A stretch of 64,000 bases of DNA from the NCBI GenBank assembly GCA_034435615.1, contig DAOTWZ010000034.1, positions 4,381 through 68,380 of the forward strand, given 5' to 3'. Shown one piece after another: positions 204-55,994 of the stretch. The notes under the pieces were generated by a model, which saw nothing but the letters and a program-made list of their open reading frames with translations, did not search any database and was not told where the DNA came from. Within the stretch, counting starts at the first letter, position 1. Each line of letters starts with the position of its first letter. Source of the DNA: Dehalococcoidia bacterium. GTDB lineage: Bacteria; Chloroflexota; Dehalococcoidia; SM23-28-2; HRBIN24. Position numbers and translations under genes: made by a program.

Positions 204-734
204 ATGACACAGGTACAGGAGAGGCCGGGCGTGGTGACCTTCCGGGGCAACCCGCTGACCCTGCTGGGGCCCGACCTGAAGGTGGGCGACAGGGCCCCGG
301 ACTTCCAGCTGGTGAATATGGAGCTGAAGCCGGTGACCCTGAAGGACTTCGCCGGGAAGACGCTGGTCCTCAGTGTGGCCCTCTCCGTGGACACGCCGGT
401 GTGCGATGTCCAGGAGAAGCGGTTCAACGAGATAGCAGCCTCCCTCTCGGAGGACGTGGTGGTGGCAGCCGTCACGGTGGACCTTCCCTTCGCTCTCAGG
501 CGCTGGTGCGGCGCCAACGGCGTGGACCGCATCCAGGCCCTGAGCGACTATCAGGACCACCAGTTCGGCCTCAGCTACGGGGTGCTCATCAAGGAGATGA
601 AGCTCCTGGCCCGCTCCGTGTGGATCGTGGACAGGGACGGAGTCATCCGCTACAAGGAGATCGTCCCCGAGGTGACGCAGGAGCCCAACTACCAGGCGGC
701 GCTGGAGGCGCTCAAGCAGGTGGCCGGCGCCTAA
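204..734 (+). CDS. tpx: thiol peroxidase (atypical 2-Cys peroxiredoxin, Tpx)
   Basis: 176-aa ORF; ATG at 204 with an AGGAGG-like RBS upstream. Tpx/AhpC-TSA family similarity along the whole length. Confidence 0.88.
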   Translation: MTQVQERPGVVTFRGNPLTLLGPDLKVGDRAPDFQLVNMELKPVTLKDFAGKTLVLSVALSVDTPVCDVQEKRFNEIAASLSEDVVVAAVTVDLPFALRRWCGANGVDRIQALSDYQDHQFGLSYGVLIKEMKLLARSVWIVDRDGVIRYKEIVPEVTQEPNYQAALEALKQVAGA

Positions 735-3673: not shown

Positions 3674-4415
3674 AGATCTGTCCTCCGTGGCTGAAGAGGA
3701 GAAGGTGGCGTTGGAAGGTCTCCCGCAGGACGTCCTCCCGCAGCACCTCTTCCAGGCGGCCGAAGGCGATGACCCGCCGGTTCAGGAAGACGGCGTGATC
3801 GAAGTGGGTGGCGACGCAACTGAGGTCATGGGTGGCCACCAGGAGGGTCTTCCCCTCCGCCGCCAGGTCCTGGAAGAGGTGGAGGAGGTCGTGCTGGACG
3901 GGGGCGTCCAGACCGGCGAAGGGCTCGTCCAGGAGGAGCAGCTCCGCCTCCTGGGCCAGCGCCCGGGCGATGAGGGTGCGACGCTGCTCCCCGCCCGATA
4001 GCTCCTGGATGCGGCGGCGGGCCTTGTCCGCCATGCCCACCCGCTCCAGGGCCTGCCAGGCCACCTGACGGTCCCGCTTGCCCGGGCGGCGGAGGAGGCC
4101 CAGGTGACCGTAACGGCCCATGAGGGCCACCTCGAAAACGGTGATGGGGAAGGCCCAGTCTATGCTCTCCGTCTGGGGAGTGTAGCCGAGGCGACGTCGC
4201 TCCGGGCGGCCGCCGAAGACCCAGACCTGGCCCCGCCAGGGGCGCTGCAGCCCCAGGATGGTGCGCAGGAGGGTGGACTTGCCGGAGCCGTTGGGGCCTA
4301 CCAGGCCGGCCAGGCACCCCCGCTCGATGCTGAAGGTGACATCCTCCAGGGCCGGACGGCCGTCGTAGCCGGTCCAGAGCCCCTCCACTCGCAGGGCCGG
4401 GGTCTCAGCGGCCAT
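3657..4415 (-). CDS. znuC: metal ABC transporter ATP-binding protein
   Basis: Walker A GPNGSGKST, signature LSGGEQ and Walker B LLLDEP. Overlaps both neighbours. Confidence 0.9.
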   Translation of the reverse strand: MAAETPALRVEGLWTGYDGRPALEDVTFSIERGCLAGLVGPNGSGKSTLLRTILGLQRPWRGQVWVFGGRPERRRLGYTPQTESIDWAFPITVFEVALMGRYGHLGLLRRPGKRDRQVAWQALERVGMADKARRRIQELSGGEQRRTLIARALAQEAELLLLDEPFAGLDAPVQHDLLHLFQDLAAEGKTLLVATHDLSCVATHFDHAVFLNRRVIAFGRLEEVLREDVLRETFQRHLLLFSHGGQIYAEHP

Positions 4416-5379
4416 CGCTCCTCTCCCCCAGGCAGCGGGCCAGCTCCTGGGCGTTGAAGCGCATCATCTCCACATAGGAGGAGATGCGCTCGTCCAGGGC
4501 ATCGCTATAGAGGGTGCAGACCTGTAGGCCCAGGTCCTGGGCCAGGCGGGCCAGGGCGCGGTCGGGCCCCTCCAGCTGGGGCTCGGTGAAGACGGCGGGC
4601 ACCCCTTCGTCCCGGATGCGACGCAGGAGGTCGGCCACGGCGGTGGCGCTGGGCTCGGCGTCGGGGTTGCTGGAGAGGTAGCCTACCTCCTGGAGGCCGT
4701 AGCGATGGGCCAGATAGGAGAAGGCGGCGTGGGTGGCCACCAGCTTGCGTCGCTCGGGCGGGACGGACTCCACCTGCTGGCGGACGTAGGCGTCCAGCTC
4801 CTCTAGCTGGGCCCGGTAGCGCTCCGCCCGGGAGCGGTACTCCTGCTCTCCCGCCGGGTCCAGCTCCGCCAACCTCCGGGCGATGATTTCCACGTAGCGG
4901 ACGGCGTTGGTGGGGTCCAGCCAGAGGTGAGGGTCCTGGCCGTGGCCGTGCTCGTGGGCCTCCTCCGGTGCGGGCTCTTCCTCCCCCTCGTGGCCGCCTG
5001 CCACCTCCTCCCCCAGCAGGACGAGGGGGGTCCCGGGCGCCTTGTTGGCCTCCAGGGCGCGCAGCCCGCCTCCCTCCAGGCCCAGGCCGTTGGCGAAGAT
5101 GGCCCGCGCCTGGCCGATGCGTCTCACCTGGGCGGGCGAAGGGTCGAAGGTGTGGGGGTCGGCGGTGGCGGGTATGAGGACGTCCACCTGCCAGCGCTCC
5201 CCGGCGACGGCCCGCACCAGGTCAGCGATGATAGCAGTGCTGGCCATGAGGCGAGGCTGTCCCTCCCCCGTCCCGCCGCCGCAGGCCCCGGCGAGGGCCA
5301 CCAGGGCCAGGCCCAGGGCGGCCGGCCGGAGGAGGTTTTTGATACTCCGTATCACTTTCGGGCGGGCGTAGCGATCCAT
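4405..5379 (-). CDS. znuA: metal ABC transporter substrate-binding lipoprotein with His-rich loop (zinc-type)
   Basis: Lipoprotein signal LALVALAGAC; ZnuA/TroA fold similarity. His/Glu-rich loop HEGEEEPAPEEAHEHGHGQDPH is typical of ZnuA. Confidence 0.88.
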   Translation of the reverse strand: MDRYARPKVIRSIKNLLRPAALGLALVALAGACGGGTGEGQPRLMASTAIIADLVRAVAGERWQVDVLIPATADPHTFDPSPAQVRRIGQARAIFANGLGLEGGGLRALEANKAPGTPLVLLGEEVAGGHEGEEEPAPEEAHEHGHGQDPHLWLDPTNAVRYVEIIARRLAELDPAGEQEYRSRAERYRAQLEELDAYVRQQVESVPPERRKLVATHAAFSYLAHRYGLQEVGYLSSNPDAEPSATAVADLLRRIRDEGVPAVFTEPQLEGPDRALARLAQDLGLQVCTLYSDALDERISSYVEMMRFNAQELARCLGERSDGR

Positions 5380-5405
5380 TCCTCGCTTTCCTCCTTTAGA
5401 GCGGT

Positions 5406-5849
5406 CTATTCAGCGGGGGGCGCTGCCTGGCGGCAGGACTGGCAGAGGCCGTAGAACTCCAGCCAGTGCCCCTGGACGTCGAACCCGGTGCTCTGGGCTA
5501 TGTCCCGCACCAGATTGCCCACCACGCACTCGTCCAGGTCACGGACGCGGCCGCAGGTGACGCAGACCAGGTGGTGATGGTGGTGTCGGGGGCCAGCCAG
5601 TCGGTAGTGGAGACGGCCATCTTCCAGGAGGACGCGGCAGAGGACGCCCAGCTCGCACAGGAGGCGGATGGTGCGGAAGACGGTGGCCCGGCCGGCCCCC
5701 GTAGCCTGGCGCAGGATCTCCTCCACGGTGAAGTGGTCCGCCTGGCTGAGGACGGCCTCCAGGACGGAGCGCCGCGAGGAGGTGACCCGGTAGCCCCGGG
5801 ACTCCAGGGCGCTGACGATGGGCTCCAGCTCGGCCGTCTCTGATACCAT
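5406..5849 (-). CDS. zur: Fur-family transcriptional regulator (Zur-like)
   Basis: 147 aa with a His-rich HHHHH motif, CxxC...CxxC zinc ligands and Fur-like DNA-binding N-terminus. It leads the znuACB genes. Confidence 0.82.
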   Translation of the reverse strand: MVSETAELEPIVSALESRGYRVTSSRRSVLEAVLSQADHFTVEEILRQATGAGRATVFRTIRLLCELGVLCRVLLEDGRLHYRLAGPRHHHHHLVCVTCGRVRDLDECVVGNLVRDIAQSTGFDVQGHWLEFYGLCQSCRQAAPPAE

Positions 5850-5921
5850 GTCTCACTCCCTGCCTGAGATTACGATGATAGCGCCTTTCAGGGACCGGGT
5901 CAATAGGCCGGAGGTGTTTTT

Positions 5922-5951
5922 CCGGGGGGCGAGGGCCGTCTCGCCCCCCGG
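5922..5951. other. GC-rich perfect hairpin between anti-sigma gene end and zur promoter (possible terminator lacking a U-tract)
   Basis: ccGGGGGGCGAG-ggccgt-CTCGCCCCCCgg forms a 10-12 bp stem. On the plus strand it is flanked 5' by tgttttt. Confidence 0.3.
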
Positions 5952-6020
5952 ATGGGGATGGAGTGGGCCTGGCCGAGGCCAGCAGCCCATCATTAGAACG
6001 CCCGGGTAGGCCCCGTTGTT

Positions 6021-6788
6021 TCAGCGGGGCAGGGGGGAGGAGGAGAGGACGGGGGGGGTAGTGGGCTGAGGGCTGCCCCCCTCTGGCTCCAGGGTGACGG
6101 TGACCTCCGTGGGCCGCCAGCCGCTGGGGAGGCGGGAGAGGTCGAAGGCGTGGTAGGCGGTGCCGTTGCGGGGGAGGAATGTATCCCCGCTGTGGGCCTC
6201 GCCGTTGCGGAGGTACCAGAGCTGATAGACGCGGCCTGGCGGCGGGTCTGGCAGGTTAACGGCGGCCACGAACCCCCAGCGTTTGCTCTCGCTCCAGTAG
6301 TAGGTGGCCCGGGCGTCGCCGTACTGTGGGCTGGGGAACATGGGCACCAGCCGCAGGTCGGGCAGGGAGACGAGGGAGACCATCTCCGTGTGCTCCCTGG
6401 CCAGCTCGCGGGTGGAGAAGATCTCGGCCCGCAGACGTTCCTGCTCCACCCTCATATCCTGCACCTGGGTGTAGAGGAGCAGGGCCAGGGCGGCCAGGGC
6501 CACCGAGGCGGCGGCGGAGGCGGCGGCCAGGCCGGGCCAGAGCCAGCGCAGGCGGGGGAGCGCCGGCCGGCGCGCCTGCGCCAGGACGCGACGGCGCAGG
6601 GCCGGCCGCGGCCGGACTATGGGGACGGCGAGGCCCAGCAGGGCAGCCACGCGGCGGGCCTCCTCCAGTTCCCCCCGACAGAGCGAACACCCTTCCAGGT
6701 GCTCTTCCAGGGCGTGTATCTCCCGCTCCGCGAGGGCGCCCAGGGCGTAGCTGTCCAGAAGCTCCCTGGCCTCCTGGCAGTCCATCAC
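6021..6788 (-). CDS. anti-sigma factor, RskA-like (zf-HC2 N-terminus, TM segment, extracytoplasmic domain)
   Basis: N-terminal HxxxCxxC motif (HLEGCSLCRGE), a central hydrophobic helix and an RskA-type C-terminal domain. It overlaps the sigma gene stop by ATGA. Confidence 0.8.
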   Translation of the reverse strand: MMDCQEARELLDSYALGALAEREIHALEEHLEGCSLCRGELEEARRVAALLGLAVPIVRPRPALRRRVLAQARRPALPRLRWLWPGLAAASAAASVALAALALLLYTQVQDMRVEQERLRAEIFSTRELAREHTEMVSLVSLPDLRLVPMFPSPQYGDARATYYWSESKRWGFVAAVNLPDPPPGRVYQLWYLRNGEAHSGDTFLPRNGTAYHAFDLSRLPSGWRPTEVTVTLEPEGGSPQPTTPPVLSSSPLPR

Positions 6789-6789
6789 C

Positions 6790-7398
6790 TCACTCCTGTT
6801 CCTGGGAGAGGAGCAGGGCCCGTAGCTTGCGCATGCCCAGCCGGATCCTCGTCTTGATTGTACCCAGGGGCAGCCCCGTCAACTGGGCGATCTCCTGCTG
6901 GGTGAAGCCGCCAAAGTAGGCCAGCTCGATGGCCTGCCGCTGCTCCGGCGGCAGGGCCGCCAGGGCCGCCTTCACCCGCTCCCGCTCTTGGGCCCAGTGG
7001 GCCTCCTGGAGTAGGTCGTCGCCGCCGCCGACGTTGGCCTCGCCCGTGGGGGCCTGGCGCTTGAGACGGCGCATCTGGGAGCGGAGCTCATCGGTGGCCC
7101 GGTTGCGGGTCACGGTGAGGAGCCACCCCAGAAAGGGCCCCTTGCGGGGGAGATACATCTCTGCCCGGTGCCAGAGCCGCAGGAAGACGTCCTGCGTCAC
7201 ATCTTCGGCCTGGTGGCTGTCTCCCAGCACCTTCCGGGCCAGGGAGTAGACGAGGCTGCTGTAGCGGTCGTACAAGGTCTCGAAGGCACGTATGTCCCCC
7301 CGCATGAGCCTGGCCACCAGCTCCTCGTCCGGCAACGAGCTATAGCTCTGTCCCCCCTCTTGCGGGTGCTGGCCTCGAGCGCCGGACTGCTCCTCCAT
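6790..7398 (-). CDS. ECF (sigma-70 family) RNA polymerase sigma factor
   Basis: Region 2 (DVTQDVFLRLW) and region 4 (QQEIAQLTGLPLGTIKTRI) signatures are present. Confidence 0.9.
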   Translation of the reverse strand: MEEQSGARGQHPQEGGQSYSSLPDEELVARLMRGDIRAFETLYDRYSSLVYSLARKVLGDSHQAEDVTQDVFLRLWHRAEMYLPRKGPFLGWLLTVTRNRATDELRSQMRRLKRQAPTGEANVGGGDDLLQEAHWAQERERVKAALAALPPEQRQAIELAYFGGFTQQEIAQLTGLPLGTIKTRIRLGMRKLRALLLSQEQE

Positions 7399-7471
7399 AA
7401 CCTAATACGGACGCCCACCGTCGCCAGATCCCTTGTCGGCAGCGAGGGCCCAGCCCTGGCCAGTCGTGGCC

Positions 7472-8233
<762 letters not shown>

Positions 8234-8347
8234 CGCCGGGGCATCCCTGCGCTACGGGGCTTGCCTCTATCATACTGGCGACGAGGGAGGCCGTCGAGGC
8301 GGCGTTGTGGGGCAGCGTGGCTAGTGCTATCCTCCCCAGGAGGAGAG

Positions 8348-9055
8348 ATGAGGGAAGGTCAGATAGGCCTCTTCCAGGCCCTCTACACGACGCGGGCGCT
8401 ACGTCGGCTCCGCCCAGACCCCGTCCCGGAGGAGGTTATCTTCCAGCTCCTGGACGCCGCCATCCGTGCCCCCACTGGCCGGAATGCCCAGGACTGGCGC
8501 TTCGTCATCGTCACGGAGCGGGCGGCCAAGGAGCGGCTCCAGGAGTGGGCGGCGGAGGCGTGGGCCCGCTACCAGCCCCGCTACGCCGCCGATCCTTCCC
8601 TCATGGAGCGCCTTCCCCGTAGCCAGCGGCTGGCCCTCAAGTCCGTCCATCACCTGGTCCGCCACCTGGCCGAGGCGCCGCTGGTGATCGTGGCCTGCGG
8701 AGAGAAGGGGCGGCACTCCACGCCCGGCGGCAGTATCTTTCCGGCGGTGCAGAACCTGCTGCTGGCCGCCCGTGGCCTGGGGCTGGGCGGCACTATCTTC
8801 AACCTGCCCCTCCTGCGGGCGGAGGAGCTGGGCCGCATGCTGGGGATACCGGAGAGCTATCAGATCTACTGTCTGCTGGTGCTGGGGTACCCGCTGGACA
8901 GGCACGGGCCGGTGCGCCGGCGGCCGGTGAGGGAGGTGACCTTCTGGGGGCGCTGGGGAGAGCCGTGGCCCTTCGCCCAGAAGCAGCCGGATGAGGGCTG
9001 GCAGGCCCGGTGGCTGGCGGAGGAGCGCCCCGGAGGGCCGGCGGGGGAATCTTAG
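8348..9055 (+). CDS. nitroreductase family protein
   Basis: The 540-aa track ORF is composite. The nitroreductase-like part starts at ATG 8348 after the AGGAGGAGAG RBS; the upstream part is antisense to the SDR gene. Confidence 0.82.
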   Translation: MREGQIGLFQALYTTRALRRLRPDPVPEEVIFQLLDAAIRAPTGRNAQDWRFVIVTERAAKERLQEWAAEAWARYQPRYAADPSLMERLPRSQRLALKSVHHLVRHLAEAPLVIVACGEKGRHSTPGGSIFPAVQNLLLAARGLGLGGTIFNLPLLRAEELGRMLGIPESYQIYCLLVLGYPLDRHGPVRRRPVREVTFWGRWGEPWPFAQKQPDEGWQARWLAEERPGGPAGES

Positions 9056-9062
9056 GATAGAG

Positions 9063-9902
9063 ATGCTCAGGAACACCTTTCTCCACCTGCCAGGCGTGGG
9101 GCCGGGGACGGAACGGCGGCTCTGGCTGGAGGGCGTCCTCACCTGGGAGGACGCCCTGGTCCATCCCTTGCCCTGGCTGGGCGAGTGGCAGCGCCGCTGG
9201 CTCTGCGCTGGCCTGGTCGAATCGCTGGAGAAGCTGCGGGTGGAGGACGCCGCCTACTTCCACCGGCGCCTCCCCGCCGGGGAGCGCTGGCGAGCCCTGG
9301 CCGAGTTCGCCCACCGGGCCGTCTGCCTGGATATCGAGACCACGGGCCTCGCCTTCGGGCCCGGCCACATCACCGTCATCGGCCTCTACGACGGCCGGGA
9401 GTACATGGCCTTCGTGCGGGGCTACAACCTGCACCGCTTCCCGGAGGTGGTCCAGCGCTACCGCCTGCTCATCACCTACAACGGTCTCCGCTTCGATGTC
9501 CCCTTCATCGAGGCGGAGATGGGGCCGGTGCTGGAGGGGCTGGCCCATCTGGACATAATGTATCCGCTGCGGCGCCTGGGCTACCGTGGTGGTCTCAAGG
9601 GGGTGGAGGTGCTGACGGGGCTGGCGCGCCCTTCCGCTCTGCAGGGGCTCGGCGGTTACGATGCCGTCCGCCTCTGGCGCCTGCACCAGAGAGGGCACCG
9701 GGGCGCCCTGCCCACCCTGGTCCGCTACAATGCCGAGGACGTGGTCTCCCTGCTGCCCCTGGCCGTCCTGGTCTACAACGAGATGGTCTGCCAGTTACCG
9801 CTACCAGTGTGTCCGCTGGAGCCTCCGCCCCGTCCCTTCCTCGACCTCCCCTACGACGCCGAGCTGGTGGATTGGCTCAGGGAGACCAGCCCGGCCCAGT
9901 AG
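9063..9902 (+). CDS. DEDDy-type 3'-5' exonuclease-like protein (RNase H-like fold, YprB family)
   Basis: Exo motifs CLDIETTG (Exo I), YNGLRFDVPF (Exo II) and YNAEDV (Exo III). Start taken at ATG 9063 because the track start overlaps the nitroreductase gene. Confidence 0.7.
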   Translation: MLRNTFLHLPGVGPGTERRLWLEGVLTWEDALVHPLPWLGEWQRRWLCAGLVESLEKLRVEDAAYFHRRLPAGERWRALAEFAHRAVCLDIETTGLAFGPGHITVIGLYDGREYMAFVRGYNLHRFPEVVQRYRLLITYNGLRFDVPFIEAEMGPVLEGLAHLDIMYPLRRLGYRGGLKGVEVLTGLARPSALQGLGGYDAVRLWRLHQRGHRGALPTLVRYNAEDVVSLLPLAVLVYNEMVCQLPLPVCPLEPPPRPFLDLPYDAELVDWLRETSPAQ

Positions 9903-9912
9903 GCCGGCCATG

Positions 9913-9928
9913 ATTAAGGCTCCTTAAT
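9913..9928. promoter_or_regulatory. AT-rich inverted repeat ATTAAGG-ct-CCTTAAT upstream of the htrA-like gene; candidate operator
   Basis: Perfect 7-bp arms with a 2-nt spacer, in an otherwise GC-rich intergenic region 36-45 nt upstream of the CDS. Confidence 0.3.
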
Positions 9929-9963
9929 GCGCCCCCGCTCGCCACGCCTTATGATGGGTGTGT

Positions 9964-11067
9964 ATGGGACGTGCCTTCGGGCTGGTCTGGCCAGCGGTGG
10001 CGGCGCTGCTGCTCCTGGCAGCCTGTGGGGGCGGCGGCGCGCCTTCCACTCCCCCGGCAGGGGCGCCCGCGCAGTCGGGCGGCGCTGCGCCGGCCCCCGC
10101 CCAGCAGGGGGCGCTCTCCACGCCCGATCTGGTGGACAGGCTGCGTCCCAGCGTGGTCCATATCCTCACGGAGTCTGCCAGTATAGACGTCTTCGGCCAG
10201 GTGGTGCCCAGCCAGGGGGTGGGCACCGGCGTCATCATCGACGAAGAGGGTCATATCGTCACCAACAACCATGTGGTAGTCCGCCCCAATACCTGCGATG
10301 AGCCCGCCCAGCGTATCACCGTCACCCTGAGCGACGGCCGCCGCTTCACTGCCCGCATAGTGGGGCGTGACGTCCCCACCGACCTGGCGGTGCTGAAGAT
10401 AGACGCCTCCGACCTGCATCCCGCCTCCTGGGGGGACTCCGCCACTCTCCAGGTGGGCGAGGAGGTGGTGGCCATGGGCAATGCCCTCAACCTGCCGGGC
10501 GGCCCCACCGTGACCAAAGGCGTGGTGAGCGCCAAGGAGCGGCTCATTCAGGAGACGGAGTGCGGCGTCAGCATCCCCGGTGCCGTCCAGACGGATGCCG
10601 CCATCAATCCGGGGAACTCGGGGGGGCCGCTGGTGAACATGCGGGGCGAGGTCATCGGCATCACCACCGCCGTCATCCGCGGCGTGGCCGAGGGGGTGGG
10701 GTTCGCCATCTCCTCTGAGACGGCCCGCCCCATCGTCCAGGAGCTCATCGAGCGGGGGCGAGTGGAGCGGGGCTTTCTGGGCATCGTCATCGCCGCCGAG
10801 GTGACGCCCAGCCTGGCGGCCGAGTTCGGCCTCCCCGTGGACTACGGGGTGGCCATAGACCAGGTGATGCCGGGCTCGCCGGCGGCCCGGGCCGGCCTCC
10901 AGCCCAACGATATCATCGTCCGCGTGGGGGAGGTGGAGGTGCGCAACAGCGGCCATCTCTTCCAGGCCCTGGCCCGCTACCGGGCAGGGGACCGGGTGAC
11001 GGTGGAGTTCTACCGTGGGGAGCGGCGCCTCCAGGCCACGGTGCAACTAGGAGAACGGCCCCAGTAG
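9964..11067 (+). CDS. HtrA/DegP-family trypsin-like serine protease with PDZ domain (lipoprotein)
   Basis: Lipoprotein signal (LLLLAAC); catalytic H (TNNHVV), D and GNSGGPL serine motif; C-terminal PDZ (GSPAARAGL). An alternative GTG start lies at 9958. Confidence 0.88.
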   Translation: MGRAFGLVWPAVAALLLLAACGGGGAPSTPPAGAPAQSGGAAPAPAQQGALSTPDLVDRLRPSVVHILTESASIDVFGQVVPSQGVGTGVIIDEEGHIVTNNHVVVRPNTCDEPAQRITVTLSDGRRFTARIVGRDVPTDLAVLKIDASDLHPASWGDSATLQVGEEVVAMGNALNLPGGPTVTKGVVSAKERLIQETECGVSIPGAVQTDAAINPGNSGGPLVNMRGEVIGITTAVIRGVAEGVGFAISSETARPIVQELIERGRVERGFLGIVIAAEVTPSLAAEFGLPVDYGVAIDQVMPGSPAARAGLQPNDIIVRVGEVEVRNSGHLFQALARYRAGDRVTVEFYRGERRLQATVQLGERPQ

Positions 11068-11108: not shown

Positions 11109-11915
11109 ATGCGAAGGCAGGATGCCCTCGGCCGCAGCATAGAGGTGGAAGCGCCGCCGGCGCGCATCGTCTCTCTGGTGCCCAGCCTGACGGAGGCCCT
11201 CTTCGCCTTCGGCGTCGGCGAGCGGGTGGTGGGCGTCACCTACTTCTGTGTGGAGCCCCGCGAGGAGGTGCGCCACAAGGCCAGGGTGGGGGGCACCAAG
11301 ACGCTGGACGTCCCGCGCGTCCTGGCCCTGCGCCCGGACCTGGTCATCGCCAGCGCCGAGGAGAACCGCCGGGAGGACGTGGAGGCGTTGCTGGCCGCCG
11401 GCCTGCGGGTCTTCGTCACCCTGCCCACCACGGTGAGGGAGGCGGTGGAGATGCTGCGGGACGTGGCGGCGTTGGTGGGGGCGGAGCGGGAGGCGGAGCC
11501 CATCATCGCACGGGCGGAGGAGGCGCTGGCGGAGACCGTCGACATCGTCTCCCGGCGAGGGAGGGTGCGGGTCTTCTGCCCCATCTGGCGGGGGCCGTGG
11601 ATGAGCGTCGGCCCCGGCACCTACATGAATGACCTCCTCAGCGTGTGCGGGGGCGACAACATCTTCGCCGACAGCGCCGCCCGCTACCCCGAGGTGACCC
11701 TGGAGGAGGTGGTGGAGCGAGACCCCCAGGTGGTCCTCCTCCCCAGCGAGCCCTACCGCTTCCGCCACCGCCACCTGCCGGAGATAGAGGCCCTGCCCGT
11801 GAGCGCCGTGCGGGACGGGCGGGTGCACCTGGTGGACGGGCGGCTCCTCTGCTGGTATGGCCCCCGCATCCCCGAGGGCCTGACTCAGGTGAGGCGGCTG
11901 CTGGTGGGAGAATGA
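11109..11915 (+). CDS. ABC-type periplasmic binding protein (BtuF/FhuD-like, class III SBP)
   Basis: 268 aa with class III SBP fold similarity. No cognate permease or ATPase is adjacent. Confidence 0.75.
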   Translation: MRRQDALGRSIEVEAPPARIVSLVPSLTEALFAFGVGERVVGVTYFCVEPREEVRHKARVGGTKTLDVPRVLALRPDLVIASAEENRREDVEALLAAGLRVFVTLPTTVREAVEMLRDVAALVGAEREAEPIIARAEEALAETVDIVSRRGRVRVFCPIWRGPWMSVGPGTYMNDLLSVCGGDNIFADSAARYPEVTLEEVVERDPQVVLLPSEPYRFRHRHLPEIEALPVSAVRDGRVHLVDGRLLCWYGPRIPEGLTQVRRLLVGE

Positions 11916-34175: not shown

Positions 34176-35402
34176 ATGGGCGGCGACGGCCCGTCACGAG
34201 GACTCCAGGCTAACGTCTGGAAGCTATACCTTTACCATTTCCTCCTGAACCTGGGACTCTGGTGGCCCATCTGGGTGGTCTATCTGCAGGAAGAAAAGGG
34301 GCTCTCACTGGGTCAGGTGGGTCTGCTGGAGGTGCCCTTCTGGGCCACCATCGCTCTCTTCCAGGTGCCGGCGGCCGCCCTGGCCGACCGCTGGGGGCGC
34401 AAGCTGGCCCTCGTCCTGGGTGCCCTGGCGCTGACGGGGGCGGTGACCCTCTTCGGCCTGGCGGTGGGCTTCTGGATGCTCGTCCTCTCCTACGTGCTTT
34501 GGGCCTTCTCCTTCACCTTTACCTGGGGCCCGGACTCGGCCTTTCTCTACGATACGCTGCGCGCCCTGGGCCGGGAGGAGGACTACCAGCGGCTGTACGG
34601 ACGGGCCTGGGGGATCAATATGCTGGCCACGGTGGCCGGCACCCTGGCCGGGGCGCCCATAGCCGCTGCCACCGACCTCCAGATGCCCATTCTGCTGACC
34701 ATCGGCCTGGCCTTCGGGGCGGTGCTGGTGGCCCTGACCTTCAGGGAGCCGCTGACGGCCTTCCGTCAGGAGATGGCGGCCTCCTTCTGGGCGGTGGTGC
34801 GGGAAGGAGTGGCCATCGCTGTGGGGAGGCCAGTCTTACGCTATGCTCTCCTCTTCTCCGGGGTGGCCACGCTGGCCAGCGTGGGGCCGCTCCTCTTCGT
34901 GCAACCCTTCCTGGTGGGCCACGGGGTGACGCTGGGGCAGCTGGGCTTCTGGCAGGCGCCGGTGCGGCTGGCCGGGGCGGTAGGCTCCCTGTGGGCCTAC
35001 AAGCTGGGGACGCTGGTGGGAGAGAAAGGGGGACTGGTGGCCCTGGTGACGCTGGCGGCCGCCGCCTACGGCCTGTTGGCCCTGTGGGACTCCCTCTATG
35101 CCGTGGTTGCCTTCTTCGCCATGAACCTGGCCTTCGTGGGGGCGCGTCCCCTGGTGACGGACTATCTGAACCGGCGTCTCCTGAGCGGCCAGCGGGCGAT
35201 GGTGGTCTCCCTCACCACCTTCATATACGCCCTGGTCCGGATACCGGCCTCGCCCCTGTCCGGATATGTGGCCTCCACGGCCTCCCTGACGGTGGCCGGG
35301 GGCGTCCTGGCCTGCCTGATGTTCGGGCTGGGGCTGCTGGTGCTCTCGCTGTGGCAGCGGGCCGAGGCGAGAGAGGCGAGGCTACCTGCCCTGGCCCCCT
35401 AG
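34176..35402 (+). CDS. MFS transporter
   Basis: About 12 TM helices and an MFS signature (ALADRWGRK). Confidence 0.85.
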   Translation: MGGDGPSRGLQANVWKLYLYHFLLNLGLWWPIWVVYLQEEKGLSLGQVGLLEVPFWATIALFQVPAAALADRWGRKLALVLGALALTGAVTLFGLAVGFWMLVLSYVLWAFSFTFTWGPDSAFLYDTLRALGREEDYQRLYGRAWGINMLATVAGTLAGAPIAAATDLQMPILLTIGLAFGAVLVALTFREPLTAFRQEMAASFWAVVREGVAIAVGRPVLRYALLFSGVATLASVGPLLFVQPFLVGHGVTLGQLGFWQAPVRLAGAVGSLWAYKLGTLVGEKGGLVALVTLAAAAYGLLALWDSLYAVVAFFAMNLAFVGARPLVTDYLNRRLLSGQRAMVVSLTTFIYALVRIPASPLSGYVASTASLTVAGGVLACLMFGLGLLVLSLWQRAEAREARLPALAP

Positions 35403-36448
35403 GGGACGACCTCCACGCTCTCCCCTTCCACCACCTCGCCGATGGTCCACACGGGGAGACCGCTTTCGCCGAAGAGGACAGGGGCCTCGGCCGCTCTTTC
35501 GGCGGGGACAGCCATGAGGAGGCCGCCGGAGGTCTGGGGGTCGAAGAGGGCCAGGGCCAGCTCCTCGGGCAGGCCCTCGGGGAGGCGGACGCGGGGGCCG
35601 TAGTAGCGGCGGTTGCGCTGGCCGCCCCCCGGGAAGATGCCGCGGGCGGCGTATTCCAGCGCTCCCGGCAGGAGGGGGACGGCGGAGGCCCGGATGCGAA
35701 GGCAGGCCCCGCTCAGGGTGGCCATCTCCCAGGCATGGCCCAGGAGGCCGTAGCCGGTGATATCGGTGACAGCGCGGGCGCCCAGCCGACGGGCCAGGTG
35801 GGAGGCGTGGCGGTTGAGGGATTTCATGCTGGCCACAGCCGCTCCCAGGTGCTGAGGGTCGGCGCGGCCGGCCTTGGCAGCGGTGGTGAGGATGCCCGTA
35901 CCCAGGGGCTTGGTGAGGAGGACGACATCGCCCGGGCGGGCGCCTCCCTTGGTGAGAACCTGGTGGGGGTGGACGGTGCCCAGGACACAGAGGCCGTACT
36001 TGGGCTCGCGGTCGATGACGGTGTGGCCCCCGGCGATGACGCCGCCGGCCTCGGCCACCTTGTCGGCGCCGCCCTGAAGGATGCGGGCGACGACGTCAGG
36101 GGGGAGGTCGTCCGGGAAGGCGGCCACGTTGAGGGCCAGGGCCACCTCGCCCCCCATGGCGTAGACGTCGCTCATGGCGTTGGCGGCGGCTATGGCGCCG
36201 TAATCGTAGGGGTCGTCCACCACGGGCGCGAAGAAGTCCACCGTCAGCACTACCGCCAGCTCATCGCTCAGGCGGTAGACGGCGGCGTCGTCCGGGGAGG
36301 CCAGCCCTACCAGGAGGTCAGGGTGGCTGGCCCCCGGCCCGTGCTCCTGCAGATGGCGCAGCACCTGCGCCAGGGCTTCTGCCCCTATTTTGCCGGCTCA
36401 ACCGGCGCAGGAGGCCATCTGGGTGAGCCGCAGCTCCTCCGCTGTCAC
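35399..36448 (-). CDS. selD: selenide, water dikinase (selenophosphate synthetase) SelD; selenoprotein with in-frame UGA (Sec) at codon 17
   Basis: The same frame as track ORF 35399..36364 continues upstream through a single TGA (plus-strand tca 36398-36400) to GTG at 36448, with GAGGAGG 10 nt upstream. The N-terminus reads VTAEELRLTQMASCAG-U-AGKIGAEAL, matching the SelD RLTQ...GAG(C/U)G.KI active-site segment. Stop codons of selD and the MFS gene overlap in CTAG. Confidence 0.8.
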
Positions 36449-36524
36449 TGGCCGTTTCCTCCTCTCGTCGATAGTGTAACAGGTGCCGGGGGGCGGGAGG
36501 AGAGTAAAATGGCCCTAGCGGAGG

Positions 36525-37259
36525 ATGAGCGGCGAAGCTGCGGAGACGACGGCCCCCGCCCCCGGGGAGGCGACAGGGGCGGCGCAGCCGACCCTCGATG
36601 CGGACGGACTGGTGGCCCGCCTGGCCCCCCTCTACGGGATGCCGGCCTGGCGACCCCACGGCGACCCTCTCACGGAGCTGGTGTTGACTGTCCTCTCCCA
36701 GAACACCAGCGATGCCAACTCCGGGCGGGCCTTTATGCGACTGCGCGCCCGCTTCCCTCGCTGGGAGGAGCTCCTGACGGCCGACCTGGCCGACGTCGAG
36801 GAGGCGATAAAGATAGGAGGTCTGGGCCGCATCAAGGCGGCCCGCCTGCGCTCCCTCCTGCAGGAGGTGGTGCGAAGGTGCGGCTCCCTGGACGTCTCCT
36901 TCCTCAGGGAGCTGCCCGTGGAGGAGGCGAGGGCCTGGCTGGAGGGGCTGCCCGGCGTGGGGCCCAAGACCGCCGCCTGTGTCCTCCTCTTCGCCCTGGG
37001 GAAGCCGGCCCTGCCCGTGGACACCCACGTGCACCGCGTGGCCCAGCGGCTGGGGCTGGTGCCCAGGGGGATGGACGCCGTCCGCGCCCAGCAGCGCCTG
37101 GAGTCGATGGTGCCGCCGGAGCTGATGTACCCCGTCCACGTCCTCCTCATCCGCCACGGGCGACGGCTCTGCCGGGCGCAGCGCCCCCTCTGCCAGGACT
37201 GTCCCCTCCTGGACGCATGCCCCCACGGGAAGGGGCAACTGGGGCTGGCGGGAGCTTGA
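36525..37259 (+). CDS. nth: endonuclease III family DNA glycosylase (HhH-GPD with 4Fe-4S cluster loop)
   Basis: HhH motif LPGVGPKTAACVLLF, catalytic Asp context and a C-terminal CxxxxxxCxxCxxxxxC motif. Confidence 0.8.
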   Translation: MSGEAAETTAPAPGEATGAAQPTLDADGLVARLAPLYGMPAWRPHGDPLTELVLTVLSQNTSDANSGRAFMRLRARFPRWEELLTADLADVEEAIKIGGLGRIKAARLRSLLQEVVRRCGSLDVSFLRELPVEEARAWLEGLPGVGPKTAACVLLFALGKPALPVDTHVHRVAQRLGLVPRGMDAVRAQQRLESMVPPELMYPVHVLLIRHGRRLCRAQRPLCQDCPLLDACPHGKGQLGLAGA

Positions 37260-54550: not shown

Positions 54551-54614
54551 GGCGCCCCCTCTCGCTCTTGATTTACGCCCGGGCTGGCCTTAGTCTAGAT
54601 TAGGGGCCCCGGTC

Positions 54615-55994
54615 ATGCTGTCTCTTCAGTTCATACGCGAGAACCCGGAGGCGGTGCGGGAGGCGCTGGCCAAGCGCCGCACGGAGGCCCCGCTGGACGA
54701 GCTTCTGGCCCTGGACCAGGAGCGACGTCGCCTCCTGCACGAGGCGGAGACGCTGCGGGCGGAGCGCAACTCCCTCTCCAAGGAGATCGGTCAGCTCACC
54801 CGCCTGCTCCAGGACGAGAACGCCCCCGGGCGGGAGCGTCGGCACGCCGAGCACCGGCGGGCCGATCTACTGGCCCGCTCCAGCTTCCTGTCGGAGCGAC
54901 TGGAGGGCCTGGAGGCCGAGCTGAGGGGACTGGAGGGGCGGCTGGAGCGGCTCCTCCTGGAGGTCCCCAACCTGCCCGACCCGCGCGTGCCGGAGGGAGA
55001 GGGGGAGGAGGACAACGTCATCGTCCGCCAGTGGGGGGAGCCCCGCTCCTTCGACTTCCCCCCGCGGCCCCACTGGGAGCTGGGGGAAGCGCTGGGCATC
55101 ATAGACTTCCAGGGGGGCGTCAAGCTGGCGGGCTCCCGCTTCTATGTCCTGCGGGGGCTGGGGGCGCGCCTGCAGCGCGCCCTCATCATGTGGATGCTGG
55201 ACTTCCACAACGCTCGCGGCTACCAGGAGGTCTACCCGCCCGCCCTCGTCCGCGAGGAGGGGATGTGGAAGGGAGGCTGGCTGCCCAAGTTCGCCGAGAA
55301 CATGTACCACGACGCGGAGGAGGACCTCTGGCTCATCCCCACAGCGGAGGTGGCCCTGACCAACCTCCACCGGGACGAGATCCTCCCCCCCGGCAGCCTG
55401 CCCATCTACTACGCCGCCTACACCCCCTGCTTCCGGCGGGAGAAGTTCAGCGCCGGGCGCGATGTCCGCGGCATCAAGCGGGTGCACCAGTTCGACAAGG
55501 TGGAGCTCTACAAATTCGTGGAGCCGGAGCGGTCGGCGGAGGAGCTGGAGCGGCTGGTGGAGGACGCCAGCGCCCTCCTGCGGGAGCTGGGGCTGCCGCA
55601 CCGCGTCGTCCTCCTCTGCAGCGCCGAACTGGGCTTCAACGCTGCCATGACCTACGATATCGAGGCGTGGGCGCCCGGCTCCGGCGAGTGGCTGGAGGTC
55701 TCCTCCTGCTCCAACTGCACCGATTTCCAGGCCCGCCGCGCCAACATCCGCTTCCGACGCGAGAAGGGGGCGCGGCCCGAGTATGTCCACACCCTCAACG
55801 GCTCCGGCCTGGCCCTCCCCCGCACGATGATCGCGCTCCTGGAGAACTATCAGCAGCCCGACGGCACTGTGCTGGTGCCGGAGGTGCTCCAGCCCTACAT
55901 GGGCGGCGTCAAGGTCATCGGCCAGCGGCCCCGGGGCGGCAGGCCCCGGGGCCGCTGGCCGCGACGGCCGCCGGAGGTGATGCCTTGGAGCTGA
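54615..55994 (+). CDS. serS: serine--tRNA ligase
   Basis: N-terminal coiled coil, class II core and an Arg/Pro-rich C-terminal tail of about 30 aa. Confidence 0.93.

Follow-up and report, generated by a model that had tools for sequence, protein, structure and literature searches.

We analysed a 64,000-nucleotide (nt) stretch of DNA from a Dehalococcoidia bacterium (assembly GCA_034435615.1, contig DAOTWZ010000034.1, positions 4,381 to 68,380 of the forward strand; hereafter the window) and found that its minus strand carries what is, on comparative sequence evidence, a complete selD gene, encoding selenide, water dikinase (selenophosphate synthetase), in which the codon for the catalytic residue is an in-frame UGA. 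The best explanation, to which we assign a probability of about 0.9, is that this selD is functional, that its translation starts at GTG 36448 and that residue 17 is selenocysteine (Sec), inserted by read-through of the UGA under the direction of a selenocysteine insertion sequence (SECIS) formed by two hairpins, H1 and H2, located just downstream. This reading rests on the homology of the UGA to the catalytic cysteine (Cys) codon of SelD, on the coding signature of the codons upstream of it, and on the conservation of the hairpins in related genes.

Reading frame and gene identity

The list of open reading frames (ORFs) of the window holds just one selD ORF, of 321 amino acids (aa), which extends from 35399 to 36364 on the minus strand and starts with GTG. 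The same frame continues to 36448, giving 350 codons with a single internal stop, and reads VTAEELRLTQMASCAG*AGKIGAEALAQ...; translation from GTG 36448 thus yields VTAEELRLTQMASCAG, then the TGA, then AGKIGAEALAQVLRHLQ.... Upstream of GTG 36448 lies a GAGGAGG motif (Table 1), and inspection of the sequence revealed no Shine-Dalgarno motif comparable to it ahead of GTG 36364. A preliminary description of this DNA had already reported the lone 321-aa ORF, the single in-frame TGA, GTG 36448 and the upstream GAGGAGG, and all of these were found again when the sequence was re-read. GTG 36448 is also the start in an NCBI locus encoding the exact protein (L081) and in five JGI loci (L082-L086), and the TGA with its flanks recurs in the former, an independent contig of a metagenome-assembled genome (MAG; GCA_006214125.1), as well as in the latter, five metagenome contigs of a 98%-identical relative. 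Because the same sequence is present in the NCBI MAG contig and in the five JGI contigs, the TGA is not a sequencing or assembly error. Global reassignment of UGA was considered and ruled out, as TGA is the terminator of 21 of the 44 confident ORFs in the window.

Table 1. Coordinates of the selD gene and of its proposed signals in the window
Feature	Position	Strand	Properties and basis
Full-length selD coding sequence (CDS)	35399..36448	(-)	349 codons plus TAG stop; selenocysteine proposed at codon 17; translation, NCBIfam, 3u0o alignment
Shine-Dalgarno-like GAGGAGG	36458..36464	(-)	9-nt spacer to GTG 36448; read from sequence
GTG start of full-length selD	36446..36448	(-)	First start codon behind the ribosome-binding site; shares the frame of the TGA and of the rest of selD
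In-frame TGA (UGA), codon 17, proposed Sec codon	36398..36400	(-)	Homologous to E. coli SelD Cys17 (3u0o alignment); TGA/TGC pattern in relatives
AAA, Lys20 of the catalytic N-terminal loop	36389..36391	(-)	Aligned with E. coli Lys20; columns A16-A17 invariant in alignment A1
GTG (Val29), false start of the 321-aa ORF	36362..36364	(-)	Forms the apical loop of H2; ORF list, H2 coordinates, public gene calls
H1, GGGGC-AGAA-GCCCU	36385-36372	(-)	5 base pairs (bp), 4-nt loop; -7.5 kcal/mol; in the minimum-energy fold
H2, GGCGCAG-GUG-CUGCGCC	36371-36355	(-)	7 bp, 3-nt loop; -11.3 kcal/mol
UGA-in-loop hairpin, GCCGG-UUGAG-CCGGC	36406-36392	(-)	-9.0 kcal/mol here; not conserved, probably incidental

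The preliminary description had placed the UGA at the catalytic Cys/Sec position and had proposed, as a check, an alignment of the 349-aa conceptual translation to SelD families; the placement is borne out. When Cys was put in for residue 17, the 349-aa product scored 374.8 bits against TIGR00476 (cutoff 125) and 341.2 bits against NF002098 (cutoff 299) in NCBIfam, and the match takes in the N-terminal loop. The PurM-like AIRS and AIRS_C domains (PF00586 and PF02769) are annotated on the identical 321-aa product and on every homolog. The best match among solved structures was E. coli SelD (3u0o; E = 4e-73), which is collinear with the product over residues 2-342. Given UGA read-through, residue 17 falls on E. 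coli Cys17 and Lys20, three residues on, aligns with Lys20, and the segments DDAAVY, VDFF, NAMSDVYAMGG and TDITGYGLLGH align with conserved segments of E. coli SelD, their conserved aspartates included.

A protein search returned SelDs in their thousands. The nearest of them, 98% and 81% identical, have been entered as truncated products of 321 and 306 aa, and more distant ones, at approximately 67% identity, are full-length and read RLTELASCAGCAGKAG. We retrieved the DNA of the 80 nearest SelD homologs from contigs representing one genome per species, nearly all of them from Chloroflexota (Dehalococcoidia, Anaerolineae and Thermoflexales). At the codon corresponding to the TGA of the window, 71 of these relatives have TGA and the other nine have TGC; the window and the 71 TGA relatives made up the Sec-type set (n=72), and the nine TGC genes the Cys-type set. 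Entropy over the ten codons preceding the TGA was 0.80, 0.41 and 1.43 at codon positions 1, 2 and 3, respectively, and Arg-Leu-Thr is kept in 71-72 of the 72 Sec-type sequences. Because variation falls mainly at third codon positions, the peptide upstream of the TGA is translated and under purifying selection. The preliminary description had named a scenario under which its proposal would fail, with residues upstream of the TGA that are not SelD-like and a Cys-form start conserved downstream instead. The opposite was found: the upstream residues (RLTxxxSCAG) are the conserved SelD N-terminus, and the scenario is excluded because the upstream codons show the signature of translated sequence.

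Very Chloroflexota-like Sec-type selD genes were found on contigs labelled as Acidobacteriota, Sphingomonadaceae, Spirochaetales or Eisenbacteria MAGs (L008, L049, L056, L059, L068 and L070), which points to mis-binning or horizontal transfer.

Hairpins downstream of the UGA

The minimum-energy fold of the 56 nt from the UGA onward consists of two abutting hairpins, H1 and H2. H1 begins 12 nt past the UGA, with its loop at 17 nt, and the loop of H2 begins at 33 nt. None of 200 shuffles folded as well as the H2 sequence (GGCGCAGGUGCUGCGCC). In the preliminary description, two candidate hairpins had been listed, H2 and a hairpin with the UGA in its loop (GCCGGUUGAGCCGGC). Both are present in the sequence, and H2 is conserved and under selection at the RNA level. 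The UGA-in-loop hairpin was rejected as a conserved element, as only 62% of its cells are paired over the 72 Sec-type sequences and, of its five pairs, two are broken in most sequences (2-14 in 45 and 4-12 in 54); it looks like a by-product of the Ala and Gly codons. H1, a second conserved hairpin at the canonical distance from the UGA, was absent from that description.

In the same 72 sequences, 90% of the cells of H2 are paired and double changes occur in five of its seven pairs, among them a paired non-synonymous change in L047, in which the change of CAG to CAC is offset by one of CUG to GUG. For H1, 69% of the cells are paired in a fixed register, the register shifting by 1-2 nt between subgroups, and compensatory changes are again evident (for example, columns 24-31 occur as CG, UG, UA and GC). 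The loops of H1 are commonly CCGA and CUGA across the relatives, and a GU loop is usually missing. In one subgroup of the relatives (L024 and L026 among them), the minimum-energy fold has an H1-like hairpin and no H2-like hairpin. A 15-mer, GCGCAGGTNCTGCGC, occurs once per locus in 51 loci, always in selD at 30 nt past the TGA, and is absent from the remainder of the retrieved DNA.

As RNAalifold returned an empty consensus, explicit pair counts, per-sequence folds and synonymous-codon resampling were used instead. At the paired third positions of H2 in the Sec forms, Ala is encoded by GCG in 60 of 61 cases (20.6 expected from the codon usage of the same genes), Leu by CTG in 63 of 69 (32.6 expected) and Arg by CGC or CGU in 59 of 60. 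The third position of the loop Val is free (G32, C16, T16, A3), and the Cys-type genes (n=9) show none of this codon bias. When synonymous codons were resampled with the protein fixed, H1-like and H2-like hairpins were expected in 17.7 and 8.0 of the 72 minimum-energy folds, compared with 55 and 50 observed. In Sec forms, the 45 nt past the UGA are also more stable than their synonymous resamples (mean z = -1.23), which is not so for Cys forms (-0.16) or for control segments of the same genes (-0.16). Judged from these alignments, it is only in Sec forms that selection at synonymous sites maintains H2, and the hairpin structure appears to be conserved beyond what the protein sequence needs.

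Some Cys-type selD genes, in which the codon is TGC, retain partial remnants of H2 (L015, GGCGCAGGUGCUGCAGC; L027, GGCGCAGGUGUUGCGAC); these remnants would fit recent Sec-to-Cys conversions as described previously (PMC1794560).

The bacterial SECIS model of bSECISearch, as summarised in PMC13188914, has a loop of 3-9 nt, a stem of 4-16 bp, a G in the first two loop positions that is usually followed by G or U, a distance of 16-37 nt from the UGA to the loop, and a minimum free energy of -7.5 kcal/mol or lower. Comparison of the fold past the UGA with this model, a check proposed in the preliminary description, showed that both hairpins fit. H2 does so in all respects (GUG loop, 7 bp, 33 nt, -11.3 kcal/mol), and H1 narrowly (AGAA loop with G in second position, 5 bp, 17 nt, and an energy of -7.5 kcal/mol that is exactly the limit). 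H2 is the best candidate for the predicted SelB-binding apex of the SECIS.

Under this explanation, translation would begin at GTG 36448 behind the GAGGAGG ribosome-binding site, and a ribosome arriving at the UGA would meet a SECIS within the next ~46 nt of the CDS, which would recruit SelB with GTP and Sec-tRNA(Sec) so that the UGA is decoded as Sec and not as a stop. H1, at 12 nt past the UGA, would lie where the minimal hairpin of the E. coli fdhF SECIS lies, and H2 would present its G-U apical loop at 33 nt. As a working model, H1 and H2 may act as one unit, in which the folded H1 carries H2 to the mRNA entrance of the ribosome; SelB would then bind H2 or the H1+H2 unit. We can speculate further, with considerable doubt, that the tandem represents a distinct SECIS of Chloroflexota selD found throughout the lineage, in which a covarying H1 at the canonical 12 nt abuts a near-invariant GU-loop H2 and serves as a folded spacer bringing the SelB-binding H2 to the ribosome entrance, and that SelD might also maintain the whole Sec trait in these aerobic thermophiles.

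Alternative explanations and the selenocysteine machinery

Several observations weigh against SECIS-directed read-through. The 72 Sec-type sequences are phylogenetically related, so that the counts given above overstate the number of independent events, and RNAalifold found no consensus structure in their alignment. The structure signal of the window sequence taken alone is modest, with a synonymous-resampling z of -1.16 (28 of 200 resamples were as stable) and a dinucleotide-shuffle z of -1.35. The GU loop of H2 lies ~14 nt further from the UGA than that of fdhF. Rfam gave no match in the window at gathering thresholds and, under permissive settings around the UGA, chance-level matches only (the best being P33 small RNA, 17 bits against 45); this miss does not count against function, because bacterial SECIS elements are too diverse for one curated model. 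Finally, no tRNA-Sec, selA or selB was found in the 64-kb window or within ~9-10 kb past either end, and the Sec-decoding capacity of the genome is therefore assumed. The modest scores and the empty consensus would also suit the view that the hairpins are no SECIS and arise as by-products of a conserved peptide (…GPEALAQVLRP…) in GC-rich genes, the more so as the AQVL peptide is fairly conserved in Cys-type SelDs too. However, synonymous resampling of the same proteins yields far fewer hairpins of either kind than were observed, the paired third positions are fixed where that of the loop is free, the Cys-type genes show no bias despite their similar peptides, and compensatory double changes include paired non-synonymous ones (L047), which makes this view very improbable. 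Even harder to credit is that the TGA is a true stop and that the locus is a pseudogene or an N-terminally truncated gene, yielding just the 321-aa product from GTG 36364 or nothing. Public calls agree with such a truncation (321 aa here and in JGI data, 306 aa for GBD12910.1 of bacterium HR24), as does the absence of Sec machinery from the sequence examined, but the 321-aa product would lack the loop from Sec/Cys17 to Lys20, the aligned counterpart of the catalytic loop in E. coli SelD, and GTG 36364, besides having no Shine-Dalgarno motif, lies inside the loop of a stable hairpin. Moreover, unlike in a pseudogene, the 16 codons ahead of the TGA keep their protein sequence in 72 lineages while their third positions vary freely, and the TGA itself is kept in 71 of 80 relatives, and synonymous-site selection on H2 is seen only where the codon is TGA.

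A different possibility accepts the read-through and supposes that the UGA is decoded as Cys, always or under selenium scarcity, by a SelB-dependent tRNA-Cys(UCA) with the shape of tRNA-Sec (selC* or tRNA-ReC type). A selC*-type tRNA has indeed inserted Cys at the opal codon of Desulfomonile tiedjei selD in engineered E. coli with a modified cysteinyl-tRNA synthetase (CysRS) (PMC5389517), and tRNA-Sec-shaped tRNAs of Cys identity (discriminator U) adjoin Sec-type selD genes in two of the Chloroflexota loci, L052 and L057. Both of these, however, carry a GCA anticodon, which reads UGC/UGU and not UGA, ARAGORN detected no such tRNA in the window, and Sec insertion is the default for a UGA with a SECIS in SelD (PMC1794560, PMC13188914). 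We thus consider decoding as Cys very improbable. Sec insertion directed by H1 and H2 remains our preferred explanation; it predicts that selenium is incorporated at the UGA, and the genome should accordingly carry selA, selB and selC.

The search for this machinery covered the window, its flanks and the related loci. With ARAGORN, the window proved to be free of tRNA genes, and none of 69 loci that are related to it or flank it gave a tRNA-Sec; none of SelA, SelB, SelU, YedE and YedF was found among the window ORFs scanned. The ~9-10 kb next to each end of the window likewise gave no selenium genes of any kind. Motif scans for SelB and SelA across all loci gave a single find, a SelB beside selD in L057, a distant relative. 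A protein search seeded with this SelB returned 120 Chloroflexota SelBs; none could be linked to the genome studied here, and P0217, the candidate with the strongest GC bias, belongs to a different assembly. In L057, a compact selenium cluster (3963-11053) comprises a YedE-like Sulf_transp protein, a class-V aminotransferase (NifS/Sec-lyase-like), a selC*-like tRNA, SelB, a TusA/YedF-like protein and a Sec-type SelD, and the selD of the window has none of the other cluster genes as neighbours. The two tRNAs next to Sec-type selD are long (93-97 nt; L052 9223-9319 and L057 6983-7077) and score 51.7 and 46.0 bits, respectively, against the Rfam tRNA-Sec family RF01852 (gathering score 47). With their Cys anticodon and a U after the acceptor stem (in L052, an encoded CCA comes next), they resemble tRNA-Cys of the selC* type, which has been listed for Firmicutes, Thermodesulfobacteria, Nitrospirae and Proteobacteria, Chloroflexota not being on the list (PMC5389517).

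Scans of the window for other selenoprotein genes, which looked for in-frame TGAs flanked on either side by coding signal, gave ordinary gene junctions only, a weak negative given that such scans miss cases like selD; at 11913, for instance, a periplasmic-binding-protein gene ends just ahead of a hydrolase gene. The thiol peroxidase (Tpx/AhpC-TSA) encoded at 204-734 (+) has Cys in its DTPVC motif and is not a selenoprotein form, and a HesB/IscA-like gene just left of the window in syntenic contigs is likewise Cys-type. Approximately 1.1 kb past the right end of the window, in a contig of the same NCBI assembly (L093, 7658-9913), lies a gene for a 751-aa oxidoreductase with Fer4 and CCG domains (GlpC/HdrD-like), which adjoins the electron transfer flavoprotein (ETF) alpha and beta genes and is called as one uninterrupted product; GlpC-like proteins are a known selenoprotein family. 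The window also encodes a seryl-tRNA synthetase (54594-55994, +), an enzyme that would load tRNA-Sec with serine; this is a housekeeping gene and no evidence for the Sec trait.

Annotation and comparison with known systems

The main value of this finding concerns annotation, because public gene calls, both for this organism and for its relatives, lack the catalytic N-terminus of SelD. Gene callers drop the first 28 codons of the window selD. A public collection lists the exact 321-aa product under NCBI assembly GCA_006214125.1 and under an NCBI contig of 126.6 kb, the gene is likewise called at 321 aa in JGI data, and the homolog of bacterium HR24 is deposited as a 306-aa protein (GenBank GBD12910.1); truncated calls of this kind had been foreseen in the preliminary description. 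The false start at GTG 36364 makes up the apical loop of H2, and the artefactual 321-aa start is thus created by the recoding signal itself. With the N-terminus missing, metabolic reconstructions could score SelD as defective or miss Sec decoding in these Chloroflexota. As ~90% of the nearest relatives share the UGA, the correction applies clade-wide, and the 15-mer GCGCAGGUNCUGCGC, 30 nt past the UGA, can serve as a convenient marker of the Sec-type gene within the group.

The neighbours of selD are an arg operon, an endonuclease-III-like gene, a major facilitator superfamily (MFS) transporter gene, rsmG, greA, a citrate synthase gene and a cox operon. The endonuclease III-like gene (HhH-GPD; 36525-37259, +) is divergent from selD, and this adjacency is kept in 20 of the 80 related loci, Cys-type ones included, with no obvious functional link.

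Compared with SelD proteins of known structure, the window gene shares with E. coli SelD (3u0o) the family, the AIRS/AIRS_C architecture and an N-terminal RLTQ...GAG-X-G/A-x-K-I loop that matches residue for residue. In E. coli, however, Cys17 is encoded by UGC and there is no SECIS, whereas the window gene has a UGA, for Sec, followed by the downstream hairpins. SelD of Aquifex aeolicus (2yye, 2zod and 2zau), a selenoprotein in its native form that was crystallised as a Sec-to-Cys variant, shows homology over the full length (E = 5e-59), and its N-terminal SSG-C-AAKVG aligns with CAG-U-AGKIG of the window protein, although it is far less similar than the Chloroflexota relatives, which are 67-81% identical. 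With regard to the RNA signal, the apex of H2 (CAGGUGCUG) resembles that of the E. coli fdhF SECIS (CAGGUCUG), with a CAGGU(N)CUG apex in common. In contrast to the bacterial SECIS consensus and fdhF, which have one extended stem-loop, the window has two abutting hairpins, and H1, although it lies at an fdhF-like distance from the UGA, is usually without a GU loop.

A close parallel is with the Sec-containing SelDs of other bacteria, which have an in-frame UGA at the same position of the catalytic N-terminal loop, a SECIS inside the CDS just downstream, and Cys-type homologs in sister lineages. The window gene differs from them in coming from a high-GC (69.7%) Chloroflexota lineage, whose nearest named relative is bacterium HR24 (~80% SelD identity) and which is not among the main Sec-decoding phyla named in a 2006 survey (PMC1794560). 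Because, among the selenoprotein families of prokaryotes, Sec-type SelD ranks second in breadth of distribution (PMC1794560, PMC13188914), our finding adds a further case of a known kind. This is a textbook selenoprotein family in a well-known situation, with no new kind of biology, and selenocysteine biology as known stays unchanged.

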